Shown here: piece by piece, positions 2,883 through 5,285 of the stretch
Position numbering within the stretch: the stretch's first letter is position 1
Layout: every line of letters begins with the position of its first letter
Source: a virus
Taxonomy: Duplodnaviria; Heunggongvirae; Uroviricota; Caudoviricetes
Reading direction: 5' to 3' (one strand)
Length of the DNA: 7,568 bases
Virus record (IMG/VR): IMGVR_UViG_2671181118_000002
The notes under the pieces: model-generated
What the model was told of the DNA's origin: nothing
The model's input: the letters and a program-made list of their open reading frames with translations, nothing else
Database searches by the model: none
Position numbers and translations under genes: made by a program

Positions 2883-3308
2883 TTAGTGCATCACCACGGC
2901 ATTTCCTGCAGGGCCACCACGGTTCATCTGATTGAAACCGGCAATCGCCACTGCGACAAAATCATCAGCGTCTCTCACCAGTCGTTCCCGCGTCTCCACC
3001 AGCTCCCGAAAATAGGCTGAACTGTGGCTGCGCATTCGGGCCACCAGCAAAGGTGGCATTGCCTTTTCGATCGCTGGTAACAACGCCTGAATTTTTTCAA
3101 CAGCATCAGGGGTGTCTTTCTCTACCCAGCGGAAAATTTTCTGTGTATTGCGAGCCAGGGCTTCCGGATGGCTGTCGTCATACAGTTCAGGAAACGTTAT
3201 ACCCAACTCAAAATAAGCCTGGGTTATTCCAGCTGCTGGAACTTTTTCGCCATCAGGACGCGCCCAGGCATTCATCGCCATGCGGATGTGTTCATGCTTG
3301 ATTTTCAT
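2883..3308 (-). CDS. YdaT-like protein (prophage CII-analog family)
   Basis: Six-frame ORF. ATG at 3306-3308 preceded by AGGAG. Overlaps the end of the upstream cro-like gene by 17 nt. N-terminus MKIKHEHI and the position straight after a YdaS/DicC-like gene match the ydaS-ydaT arrangement of Rac-type prophages (recalled, not searched). Confidence 0.65.
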   Translation of the reverse strand: MKIKHEHIRMAMNAWARPDGEKVPAAGITQAYFELGITFPELYDDSHPEALARNTQKIFRWVEKDTPDAVEKIQALLPAIEKAMPPLLVARMRSHSSAYFRELVETRERLVRDADDFVAVAIAGFNQMNRGGPAGNAVVMH

Positions 3309-3573
3309 GAATCAAGCTCCTAGAAAGTGGTTGTGTTAACGTTTTGGTATCTTCCAGCTCGGGCCAAATATTCATCCAATCAAAAGGCCTTAGTTGCTGA
3401 CGTGTAACTTCACCATTACTGGCTCGCTCAATAAGGACACATAACGATGCCCCTAACACTTGACCTTTACTCAATGCCTTTCTTAGATAACCGATGCTGG
3501 TACCACACTCGCATGCAAACATACGCTGTTCATCTGACGAAAGAGAATTGAGAAATATTCTTAATTCTTCCAT
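3292..3573 (-). CDS. Cro-like HTH regulator of the YdaS/DicC family
   Basis: Six-frame ORF. ATG at 3571-3573 with AAGGAG 6 nt upstream. Divergent from the repressor gene. Contains an HTH-like segment (GTSIGYLRKALSKGQ) and the C-terminal motif GEVTRQQLRPFDWMNIWPEL, which I recall as typical of YdaS/DicC-type proteins. Confidence 0.75.
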   Translation of the reverse strand: MEELRIFLNSLSSDEQRMFACECGTSIGYLRKALSKGQVLGASLCVLIERASNGEVTRQQLRPFDWMNIWPELEDTKTLTQPLSRSLIHENQA

Positions 3574-3598
3574 AGCTACTCCTTAGTAAACACAGCAA

Positions 3599-3680
3599 AG
3601 AATACCCACAGGTAAACAAAAGTCAATACCCACAGGTTGTTTACCTTGCAGTAATCGCATCTATTATTTACCTATGGACA
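3599..3680. promoter_or_regulatory. Divergent promoter/operator region between the cro-like and repressor genes, with repeated TACC-N4-GGTA-type operator motifs
   Basis: Direct repeat AATACCCACAGGT at 3601-3613 and 3625-3637. 10-bp inverted repeat AGGTAAACAA (3611-3620) / TTGTTTACCT (3637-3646). Candidate leftward promoter on the minus strand: TTGACT (3621-3626), ~16-bp spacer, TATTCT (3599-3604). Candidate rightward promoter: TTTACC (3640-3645), 16-bp spacer, TATTAT (3662-3667), ending 6 nt before the repressor ATG, which suggests a leaderless mRNA. Confidence 0.5.
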
Positions 3681-4093
3681 AATATGAATTTAGACGACAG
3701 CAACTCATCAAAATTCGTGATGAGAAATGCGATGGTAAAGCGGTTAACGTGGCCAGAAAGATCGGGCGCGAGCCTTCTTATGTATCAAGAATGTTGTACC
3801 CAGAGGGGAAAAAGGGAAAAAAACGGATCGCTGATGATATGGTGGAGATTATCGAAGAGTCCTTTGGGTTACCCCGGGGATGGATGGATGGTATCGTTTC
3901 ATCATCAACGAACACAGCCTCCAGTTATGAAACAAGGGTTCTAACGCCACGACAACGTATTTTTTTAGATCTCTTAGACGAACTGCCAGAAAGTGAAGCG
4001 GATAACTTATTAAAAACTCTTGAAGAGAAAAAACAGTATTACAATATGATCTACGAAGAAATCCGTAAAAAGAAAGCACAAAACGCATCATAG
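3674..4093 (+). CDS. Prophage repressor (CI/DicA-like); the C-terminal region resembles DicA, the N-terminal DNA-binding region does not
   Basis: Six-frame ORF 139 aa, divergent from the cro-like gene. HTH-like segment AVNVARKIGREPSYVSRML. C-terminal LTPRQRIFLDLLDELPESEADNLLKTLEE resembles the DicA C-terminal pattern as I recall it. No Shine-Dalgarno upstream, consistent with a leaderless start. Confidence 0.7.
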   Translation: MDKYEFRRQQLIKIRDEKCDGKAVNVARKIGREPSYVSRMLYPEGKKGKKRIADDMVEIIEESFGLPRGWMDGIVSSSTNTASSYETRVLTPRQRIFLDLLDELPESEADNLLKTLEEKKQYYNMIYEEIRKKKAQNAS

Positions 4094-4135
4094 CTCACCA
4101 AACAACTAGTCACCAGTTAAGACACCGCAAAAAGT

Positions 4136-4176
4136 TACCCATGGGTATTTACTTTTTAAATACCTATGGGTATCCT
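4136..4176 (+). promoter_or_regulatory. Operator/promoter region upstream of the dicB-type operon: a perfect 12-bp palindrome and a near-copy of the same motif
   Basis: TACCCATGGGTA at 4136-4147 is its own reverse complement. TACCTATGGGTA at 4161-4172, 25 bp away. Same TACC-N4-GGTA motif as in the 3599-3680 region. Candidate -35 TTTACT (4148-4153) and -10 TATCCT (4171-4176). Confidence 0.45.
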
Positions 4177-4358
4177 TCTTTTCATACCAACCCACCCCGC
4201 CCCACAGAATGCAGGGCAATACTTCGAGTTACCAGGCAGTGGTCAGGGGTTAAGTAGCCAGCCCGAGGCGTAAGAACATGACGGCAGGGTTCAACTTTAA
4301 TAACTATGCAGCAGGTTTTTGTTCCGCTACCCCGGCGTTAAGGGGAAATGAGGTCAGC

Positions 4359-4514
4359 ATGGATACTATCGATCTTGGCAACAACGAATCTCTGGTGTAC
4401 GGCGTATTTCCAAACCAGGACGGCACGTTCACCGCAATGACGTATACCAAAAGCAAAACGTTTAAAACCGAAAATGGTGCCCGTCGCTGGCTGGAAAGAA
4501 ACTCAGGTGAGTGA
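4359..4514 (+). CDS. ydfA: YdfA-like small protein (51 aa), first gene of the dicB-type operon
   Basis: Within six-frame ORF 4278..4514. ATG at 4359-4361 preceded by GAGGT gives a 51-aa product (MDTIDLGNNESLVYGVFPNQDG...) matching the size and position of Qin ydfA. An upstream ATG at 4278 would give 78 aa. Confidence 0.65.
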   Translation: MDTIDLGNNESLVYGVFPNQDGTFTAMTYTKSKTFKTENGARRWLERNSGE

Positions 4515-5232: not shown

Positions 5233-5285
5233 TTTCTGGTGACGTTTGGCGGTATCAGTTTTACTCCGTGGCTGCTCTGCCGCCC
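5233..5285 (+). ncRNA. dicF: DicF small regulatory RNA
   Basis: TTTCTGGTGACGTTTGGCGGTATCAGTTTTACTCCGTGGCTGCTCTGCCGCCC followed by TTTTT matches the DicF sequence as I recall it, possibly with one substitution. Lies between ydfC-like and dicB, as in the Qin prophage. Confidence 0.85.

Follow-up and report, generated by a model that had tools for sequence, protein, structure and literature searches.

Among the described systems closest to the locus analysed here are the immunity regions of YdaS/YdaT-type prophages. In Qin, the promoter dicBp is repressed by DicA, and this repression is relieved by the antirepressor Rem (PMC10448788). RacR recognizes the operator (T/A)TAGGC-n3-GCCTA(T/A), and three transcription starts have been mapped for racR, one of them leaderless; the leaderless promoter, PracR3, is the strongest and is essential for promoter strength (PMC9638921). 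The corresponding repeats of PaaR2/YdaS in prophage CP-933P are GTTTAGTAA palindromes, and the PaaR2 transcript was found to be leaderless by 5'-RACE, N-terminal sequencing and mass spectrometry (PMC8630535). Here, we analyse positions 3599-3680 of a 7,568-nt stretch of tailed phage DNA (IMG/VR record IMGVR_UViG_2671181118_000002; hereafter, the window). This segment is likely to represent the right operator (OR) in the immunity switch of a lambdoid prophage, and we propose a mechanism for the switch below.

The window is the immunity region of a lambdoid, Rac/Qin-like Escherichia coli prophage. Its open reading frames for a 139-aa repressor (3674-4093, + strand, intact) and a 93-aa YdaS/Cro-like protein (3292-3573, - strand) are divergent, with 100 bp between them, as an earlier reading of this DNA from its sequence alone (the sequence-only reading) had described. 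In common with CP-933P, the locus has a short repressor, an intergenic region of about 100 bp, ydaS, ydaT and replication genes (PMC8630535, PMC9986795). It also has a perfect YdaT box, and a PL-like promoter of CP-933P carries similar operators. It differs from CP-933P in that the latter uses GTTTAGTAA palindromes as operators and has the paaA2-parE2 toxin-antitoxin genes after the repressor gene, which are absent from the window. Like DicA and RacR, the repressor belongs to the short proteins (135-158 aa) without a peptidase domain, and its residues 86-136 form a DicA-like C-terminal region (PMC10448788, PMC9638921, PMC11879457). In contrast, its N-terminal domain is unrelated to theirs at the Pfam level (no HTH_3), and its operators differ from those of RacR. 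The locus shares with Qin a downstream ydfA-like/DicF/DicB arm behind a repressor-controlled promoter. Altogether, the design is lambda-type, and the gene content is that of the YdaS/YdaT-type immunity regions of Rac, CP-933P and Qin.

Predicted palindromic operators between the repressor and cro-like genes

The intergenic region contains the direct repeat AATACCCACAGGT at 3601-3613 and 3625-3637, with 100% identity and a spacing of 24. A direct repeat of at least 13 nt appeared in only 4 of 20,000 shuffles of the 100-bp region. The sequence-only reading had placed these two copies exactly, and it had correctly discerned a TACC-N4-GGT(A/T) element in each of them, namely TACCCACAGGTA at 3603-3614 and TACCCACAGGTT at 3627-3638. 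A motif search with TACCNNNNGGTA, allowing at most one mismatch, returned seven matches in the window against 1.43 expected, a number that none of 200 shuffles reached. Five of the seven fall into two clusters, one at 3603-3614, 3627-3638 and 3642-3653 and the other at 4136-4147 and 4161-4172. The predicted operator is the palindrome TACC-N4-GGTA, whose full form is about TTTACC-N4-GGTAAA.

The three sites of the first cluster occupy distinct positions relative to the two divergent promoters. O_R1 (O1; TACCCACAGGTA) has perfect half-sites in the extended form aaTACC-N4-GGTAAa and is located inside the spacer of a leftward PR-like promoter, sharing two bases with its -10 element. O_R2 (O2; TACCCACAGGTT), the right half of which is degenerate as it is throughout the family, is adjacent on one side to the PR -35 element. 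It is centred at -41.5 relative to the repressor ATG, which is also the proposed start of the repressor promoter (PRM); by analogy, this would be the position of a class II activator. O_R3 (O3; TACCTTGCAGTA, 3642-3653) has one mismatch and covers positions -32 to -21 if +1 is A3674, thus overlapping the PRM -35 element. The spacing is 24 bp between O1 and O2 and 15 bp, centre to centre, between O2 and O3. A putative fourth operator over the proposed start and the ATG (TACCTATGGACA, 3669-3680; two mismatches) is specific to the window, with no conservation in homologous loci, and we kept it only as a weak, unproven candidate.

A 10-bp inverted repeat (AGGTAAACAA / TTGTTTACCT) does exist in this region as the sequence-only reading had it, except that its arms are at 3610-3619 and 3637-3646, the left one having been placed at 3611-3620. 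The arms correspond to the right half of O1 with its flank (GGTAAAcaa) and to the left half of O3 with its flank (ttgTTTACC). We therefore rejected the repeat as a separate element, be it a hairpin or a site in its own right, and regard it as a by-product of the O1 and O3 halves.

A promoter scan of 3250-4350 returned exactly two sites, the divergent PR- and PRM-like pair. The PR-like promoter of the cro-like/YdaT-like operon (3599-3626, - strand) consists of a -35 element TTGACT (3626-3621), a 16-nt spacer and a -10 element TATTCT (3604-3599), and its transcript would start near 3592. The PRM-like promoter of the repressor gene (3640-3667, + strand) consists of a -35 element TTTACC (3640-3645, in O3), a 16-nt spacer and a -10 element TATTAT (3662-3667). 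Read leftwards, O2 is followed at once by the -35 element, then by O1 and by a -10 element that begins at the TA of GGTA. Both the TTGA after O2 and the TA...T beginning in the GGTA of O1 are kept across the family of related loci described below.

This architecture resembles that of lambda in its divergent repressor and cro genes, its three palindromic OR sites, the 24 bp between O1 and O2 and the placement of a -10 element for a start at the AUG. O2 is located at about -42 of PRM, and lambda OR2 is likewise centred at about -42 of PRM. As in lambda, moreover, a left operator (OL) is found past the repressor gene, over the PL promoter of the early-left arm. The differences are that the window's operator measures 12-16 bp rather than 17, that O2 and O3 are 15 bp apart rather than 23, that there are two OL sites rather than three, and that O1 is in the promoter spacer. 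In addition, the repressor has no S24 domain, the Cro protein is of the YdaS family and the equivalent of CII is YdaT.

Conservation of the sites across loci and in the E. coli population

We compared the locus with those of coliphage mEp043 and phage CharmingMan, of 41 species-level genomes (38-82% identity) and with four short-class loci. The 41 genomes span Enterobacterales, Aeromonas, Burkholderiales, Neisseria, Nitrosomonadales and Xanthomonadales, and the footprint statistics are based on 44 loci with a homologous domain (38-100% identity). The repressor N-terminus, MDKYE, is conserved and fixes the start codon. Upstream of it, sites with at most one mismatch occur almost only at -71 to -75, -47 to -50 and -32 to -35. 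The family offsets from the repressor ATG are thus about -73, -48 and -33, and those of the window are -71, -47 and -32. A site is present at -71 to -75 in 39 of the 44 loci and at -32 to -35 in 36 of them. Between -100 and -12, there are 27 sites per kb, 48 times the 0.56 per kb of the other 144 kb, and most of the matches in the latter come from pairs of sites that follow the repressor gene and are 25-26 bp apart. The sequence surrounding the sites is otherwise unalignable among the loci.

The consensus sequences are tTTACCyryrGGTAAa for O1, tCAATACCyryrGGtt followed by ATT for O2, aTTTACC-N4-GGTAa for O3 and tTTACCyryrGGTATTgAc for OL2. With their flanks, the half-sites have centres about 10 bp apart, i.e. 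one helical turn, which suits a dimer of a helix-turn-helix (HTH) protein. That operators are present at divergent immunity promoters, as the sequence-only reading had proposed, is supported by the flanking genes, by the mEp043-like domain of the repressor and by the same motif at the same offsets in about 40 loci. However, that description was incomplete, as it comprised two of the five sites and missed O3 and the OL/PL pair. Its suggestion of a distinct immunity specificity holds insofar as the motif differs from the published RacR, PaaR2/YdaS and YdaT sites. The motif is nevertheless not unique to this prophage but common to mEp043 and a wide proteobacterial family. A full-text search with the motif, the site sequences, mEp043 and the RefSeq proteins, which left most subscription journals outside, found no description of the operator.

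The same sites stand out at a much finer scale. Among 80 IMG/VR E. coli contigs with an identical domain, which represent 17 intergenic haplotypes, the variable positions amount to 1 of 24 in the half-sites, 9 of 12 in the N4 cores and 8 of 64 in the rest of the intergenic region (half-sites versus N4 cores, Fisher P 2e-5). The sole half-site variant is at 3650, where the window has the minority A (TACCTTGCAGTA) and about three quarters of the 80 contigs have G, which yields the perfect site TACCTTGCGGTA. That the majority allele completes the palindrome argues that O3 is a real site.

The N4 cores at 3607-3610, 3631-3634 and 4140-4143 as well as position 4165 are polymorphic, and the changes sometimes come in blocks, e.g. 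CACA to TTTG. This variability may stem from recombination between alleles or from affinity tuning.

A predicted leaderless repressor mRNA

Six bases separate the -10 element TATTAT (3662-3667) from the repressor ATG at 3674, as was rightly pointed out in the sequence-only reading. Its statement that this ATG has no Shine-Dalgarno (SD) sequence also proved accurate, none of GGAG, GAGG, AGGA and AAGG occurring within 18 nt upstream. With a -10 element ending 6 nt before the ATG and no SD, transcription would begin at the A of the AUG. The repressor mRNA is therefore most likely leaderless, with A3674 as its predicted start. In contrast, the ATG of the cro-like gene is preceded, at a distance of five nt, by a strong SD, AAGGAG (3584-3579).

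This geometry recurs in the family. For each of the 35 loci with both O1 and O3, we examined the best -10-like hexamer located 3-12 nt from the ATG. The gap between this hexamer and the ATG is 6 or 7 nt in 29 loci, against 7 loci under a uniform expectation (binomial 2e-15, a value that overstates the independence of related loci). None of the 35 loci has a properly spaced SD, and the few SD-like tetramers flagged are in or just upstream of the -10 element. The bases around the -10 element and the ATG are otherwise unconserved in the diverged loci. The proposal of a leaderless repressor mRNA made in the sequence-only reading is thus supported by comparative geometry and by the precedents of PaaR2 and RacR. 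In the family, the -10 element is often TAGAAT followed by G, which creates an in-frame ATG three codons upstream (e.g. 2487-2503 in locus L003), and gene callers consequently often annotate MxxMDKYE starts. Such starts are probably systematic mis-annotations that result from the leaderless arrangement.

Alternatively, the repressor mRNA might come mainly from promoters further upstream and not be leaderless, in which case TATTAT would be no functional -10 element. Those promoters could be a YdaT-activated PRE-like promoter or additional ones such as PracR1 and PracR2 of RacR. Only one of the three mapped starts of racR is indeed leaderless (PMC9638921), the PRM-like promoter matches the consensus at 9 of 12 positions, and the count of the promoter scanner is at chance level. 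One can also read, as speculation, a CII/PRE-like establishment promoter directed toward the repressor gene at 3298-3326 (+ strand; TTGATT, 17 nt, TAGAAA). We nevertheless find this explanation unlikely, given that 29 of 35 diverged loci combine the lack of an SD with a -10-like hexamer 6-7 nt before the conserved MDKYE start. In addition, the leaderless promoter is the strongest one in RacR, and PaaR2 has been proven to be leaderless. Upstream promoters could, moreover, exist beside PRM with no conflict with a leaderless PRM transcript.

A pair of predicted operators downstream of the repressor gene

The second cluster is found just past the repressor stop codon, at +462 and +487 from the repressor ATG, and its two sites are 25 bp apart. 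O_L2 (TACCCATGGGTA, 4136-4147) is perfect and directly upstream of the -35 element of a PL-like promoter. O_L1 (TACCTATGGGTA, 4161-4172), also perfect, is in the spacer of that promoter and shares two bases with its -10 element. The PL-like promoter (4148-4176, + strand) comprises a -35 element TTTACT (4148-4153), a 17-nt spacer and a -10 element TATCCT (4171-4176). It matches 8 of the 12 consensus positions, which is under the threshold of the scanner, and it is weaker than its counterparts in active phages. It points toward the DUF1391/ydfA-like gene, DicF and beyond, and by analogy it would be the positional equivalent of dicBp.

The register of the PL-like promoter is that of a spot in mEp043 independently annotated as putative PL, and it is found in 21 other loci. 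In the window and in 21 loci, the order is O_L2, a -35 element (TTGAC, TAGACA or TTTAC), O_L1 and a -10 element that begins in GGTA. This repeats the order at PR, and PR and PL are thus of one design. The two sites of the downstream pair are 25-26 bp apart in 21 homologous loci and in the window, with the hexamers in fixed register. The pair is also present in three short-class loci (L126, L128 and L129), where it is found about 1.3-2.3 kb past the repressor start, behind inserted genes.

A terminator scan flagged the segment 4136-4181 (+ strand), in which both O_L palindromes form a hairpin with a 16-pair stem followed by the T-rich tail UCCUUCUUUU (U-rich in the RNA). Its predicted folding free energy is -24.1 kcal/mol (z -4.57). 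Although these features are those of an intrinsic terminator, we judge it quite improbable that the segment serves only to terminate the repressor transcript and contains neither operator nor promoter. A hairpin is expected from any two copies of the palindrome, and the pair recurs at 25-26 bp with hexamers in fixed register in 21 other loci, many of which have no T-run. Some of the pairs are more than 1 kb past the repressor stop, and polymorphism spares the half-sites here too. On the recurrence of the pair and of the promoter register in the 21 loci, we rejected 4136-4172 as a sole terminator. A dual role is plausible, and the hairpin of the OL operator may also act as a terminator for the repressor gene.

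The repressor and its partner proteins

The repressor is composed of an N-terminal HTH domain (residues 1-75) with the recognition helix PSYVSRML, a disordered linker (residues 76-87) and a DicA-like helical C-terminal domain. In an AlphaFold2 model (predicted local distance difference test score of 81), the helices of the HTH domain are at 3-18, 23-30, 34-41 and 54-63 and those of the C-terminal domain at 92-103 and 106-138. A Pfam search of the 139-aa protein gave no match, including none to HTH_3 or S24 (PF00717), and a PDB sequence search returned only spurious matches to Z-alpha domains (E about 0.08). Residues 1-86 are 65% identical to the cI protein of coliphage mEp043 and share 70-82% identity with hundreds of 'LexA family' proteins of 218-242 aa in which the S24 domain PF00717 is present. 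Residues 86-136 match the C-terminus of DicA (NCBIfam NF007257, E 2.8e-5). As the DicA match is restricted to the C-terminus and the N-terminal domain is of another family, the protein is a domain mosaic of a DNA-binding domain of the mEp043-cI type and a DicA-like helical C-terminus, not a DicA orthologue.

With its homologous HTH domain and a helix of the type (E/D)xSYVSRMLY, the protein is a member of the MDKYE domain family. It shares with mEp043 cI and the S24-containing MDKYE repressors a DNA-binding domain with 65-82% identity and an identical recognition helix. The OR geometry (-73, -48, -33), the OL/PL design and the YdaS-family Cro protein are also common to these systems. However, those repressors are 218-242 aa long and, with their PF00717 S24 domain, presumably SOS-cleavable, whereas the window protein has the DicA-like helical domain instead. 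It is not of the self-cleaving S24 class, as it has no PF00717 domain and its modelled C-terminus consists of two helices. Its features are rather those of the short prophage repressors of about 135-160 aa, with no peptidase domain and with ydaS/dicC-like and ydaT-like partners.

Short repressors of the same build were found in Yersinia, Serratia, Salmonella and a metagenome, and the DicA-like ones (Yersinia, Serratia and the metagenome) are accompanied by the same OR and OL. Among PDB folds, the model is closest to 5d50, the Rep protein of a Salmonella temperate phage (E 7e-4). The SPC32H Rep/Ant system (5d50) and the Gifsy repressors are similar in that they are short and non-cleavable, with an HTH N-domain and a helical C-domain, and are inactivated by antirepressors (PMC3121763). 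As to the differences, SPC32H Rep is a weak structural match, and no antirepressor gene was identified in the window, none having been sought outside it.

The 93-aa protein matches the PDB 'Cro' chains 8c7k and 8co2 (E 1e-10), which we take to be CP-933P YdaS, and PHROG 35. The Pfam matches of the neighbouring genes are YdaS_toxin, below cut-off, for the Cro-like protein and YdaT_toxin for the product of the next gene. A Cro-like homologue (36-73% identity) is encoded divergently in 36 of the 44 loci, the identity to the Cro protein of mEp043 being 73%. This points to Cro, operators and DNA-binding domain travelling as one cassette while the repressor C-terminal domain is exchanged. Repressor lengths among the loci range from 119 to 300 aa. 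By analogy, the Cro-like protein probably competes for the same operators.

We also considered that the TACC-N4-GGTA sites are bound only by the Cro-like YdaS-family protein or a YdaT/CII-like protein and not by the 139-aa repressor. As 36 of 44 loci have both the sites and the Cro-like gene, their joint presence does not by itself distinguish between the two proteins, and PaaR2 and YdaS both footprint the same CP-933P intergenic region (PMC8630535). However, the presence of the motif follows the recognition helix of the repressor. All loci with a helix of the type SYV(S/T/L/I)RM(L/I/A)(Y/W) have at least two upstream sites, with the exception of L006, which has one. The loci with altered helices, L025 (SYVNRIF), L041 (ASISHML) and L045 (ATISHLL), have no sites, and L036 and L039 have one.

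The sites are, moreover, kept in four Klebsiella loci with S24-type repressors (L006, L009, L010 and L012) that have no divergent Cro-like gene. A site is present at -73 in all four and at -33 in three, the exception being L006; the middle operator is absent and replaced by ttgctatatttt. There are also sites at OL, which adjoins the repressor gene and is far from cro, and YdaT has another box, TTGATT-N6-AATCAA, at 3298-3315 (PMC9986795). Shared use of the sites by repressor and Cro is expected and is already part of the model proposed here, and we regard binding by the partner proteins to the exclusion of the repressor as very improbable.

Downstream of the repressor gene, the pair of sites is present with at most one mismatch in two of the four Klebsiella loci. 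In a third, it appears only when two mismatches are tolerated in the second site, and the fourth has a single site. These four repressors may be solitary or domesticated. The two Advenella loci, L041 and L045, have instead a longer-spaced inverted repeat upstream (ATACCGC...GCGGTAT and ATACCGT...ACGGTGT, respectively), which suggests a changed half-site spacing.

The YdaT box of the window, TTGATTTTCATGAATCAA at 3298-3315, is a perfect fit to TTGATT-N6-AATCAA, and the ATG of the YdaT-like gene (- strand) is located in its spacer. The same arrangement of box and start codon has been reported for Rac and CP-933P.

Proposed mechanism of the switch

The in silico analysis thus revealed several palindromic operators over divergent promoters and a second cluster at PL, as befits a switch of this functional class. 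In the mechanism that we propose, the steps of repressor binding and leaderless transcription are based on comparative sequence analysis and the others on analogy with lambda, DicA, PaaR2, RacR and Gifsy/SPC32H. Dimers of the 139-aa repressor would bind the TACC-N4-GGTA palindromes via their HTH domain. As O1 and O2 bracket the PR -35 element and cover the spacer and the -10 element, their occupancy would shut off the cro-like/YdaT-like/replication operon. Similarly, occupancy of the two-site OL over PL would silence the ydfA-like/DicF/DicB/recET arm. Binding may be cooperative at O1-O2 and at OL1-OL2, and repressor at O2, at about -42, may activate PRM. O3, over the PRM -35 element, could allow the repressor to limit its own synthesis or be bound preferentially by the Cro-like YdaS-family protein, which probably represses PRM via the same sites. 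Transcription from PRM is predicted to start at the A of the AUG and to give a leaderless mRNA. With no S24 domain and a DicA-like helical C-terminus in the repressor, induction would more probably occur by an antirepressor, or by flipping of the switch, than by RecA cleavage. Looping between OL and OR over 533 bp is conceivable should the C-terminal domain assemble into higher oligomers, as has been reported for PaaR2 (PMC8630535).

Several points weigh against this interpretation. The activation of PRM from O2 is proposed purely by analogy, and the 15 bp between O2 and O3, compared with 23 bp in lambda, makes simultaneous or lambda-like cooperative occupancy uncertain. The A3650 allele of the window slightly weakens its O3. 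The promoter matches are modest (9 of 12 positions for PR and PRM, 8 of 12 for PL), and the two promoters returned by the scanner equal the chance expectation of 2.0 for the region, so that the promoter calls rest on conserved position and register. The loci share ancestry and their counts are not independent, and the statistics thus overstate independence. As for the protein, the DicA match scores 23.9 bits compared with a curated cut-off of 101 and involves the C-terminal 51 residues only. The fold match to 5d50 is weak (TM score of 0.47, 16-21% identity), a lead rather than proof. Finally, we found in the literature no experimental work on the mEp043 operators and no binding, footprint or transcription start data for family members.

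The analysis provides a concrete map of five predicted sites and three predicted promoters for a module that about 15% of complete E. coli genomes carry. The switch is predicted to control the arm with the DicF small RNA in the window, and also DicB and RecET in the related O55:H7 prophage. It assigns a putative recognition sequence to a large family of repressor DNA-binding domains that has no Pfam model. It also adds a third leaderless repressor mRNA, predicted and conserved, to those experimentally shown in YdaS/YdaT-type prophages. The concept is that of a textbook lambda-like design and should hold little surprise for specialists.

A more tentative idea, which we rate as possible rather than probable, is that the cassette of MDKYE domain, TACC-N4-GGTA sites and YdaS-type Cro protein has remained unchanged in specificity and in geometry over a range that extends from Enterobacterales to Neisseria, Burkholderiales and Xanthomonadales. 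Its C-terminal 'induction' domains would be interchangeable (self-cleaving S24, DicA-like helical or others of 150-300 aa), and the non-cleavable version would be an SOS-proof immunity factor. If so, SOS-inducible phages with matching operators, such as mEp043, would be repressed in trans by the window repressor, which would thereby block superinfection by such phages or lock co-resident prophages. In that case, affinity or sub-specificity would be tuned in the N4 cores, which vary at 9 of 12 positions.

Genomic context of the immunity module

The window also contains, on the - strand, a gene for a replication protein (1088-2194) and the YdaT/CII-like gene (2883-3308; YdaT_toxin Pfam match). 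The + strand carries the DUF1391/ydfA-like gene (4278-4514) and the DicF gene (5234-5285; Rfam RF00039, 75 bits). Since the latter is downstream of the PL-like promoter, a cell-division inhibitor is probably under the control of the switch.

The 1,051 bp around 3599-3680 are found with at least 99.7% identity in many complete genomes. Coverage of this stretch reaches at least 80% in 822 of 5,426 genomes (~15% of complete E. coli genomes). The strains with the module include O55:H7, O145:H28 and O103. In O55:H7 RM12579, the copy is inside a prophage adjoining ttcA, together with intR, xisR, recET and dicB. That the repeats of this Rac-like prophage, many database copies of whose repressor are frameshifted, are chance or functionless remnant duplications in a decayed cryptic element is hardly credible in view of the shuffle tests on repeats and motif, the positional conservation across phyla, the invariant half-sites in the E. 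coli population and the intact repressor gene of the window.

Megablast searches against phage genomes gave matches confined to the flanks of the immunity module, which indicates that the module is a swapped cassette with a right border near 4185. Phage Tritos (L004) and several vB_Eco phages share the flanks of the window at 93-99% identity. Between these flanks, Tritos has another 139-aa repressor, 39.5% identical over residues 21-139, and its operators differ, being GTACT-N3-AGTAC-like. Mosaic borders of the immunity cassette are visible at about 3250-3300 and about 4185-4300.

Frameshifted versions of the repressor are frequent among E. coli database proteins (P0005, P0007-P0018, P0022 and P0029). 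In several of them, the start is an ATG at 3684 that is out of frame, and the repressor frame is regained near the A-runs GGGAAAAAGGGAAAAAAACGG (3806-3826; open reading frame 3684-3944). These frameshifts at A-run homopolymers point to frequent inactivation of the repressor or to sequencing error.

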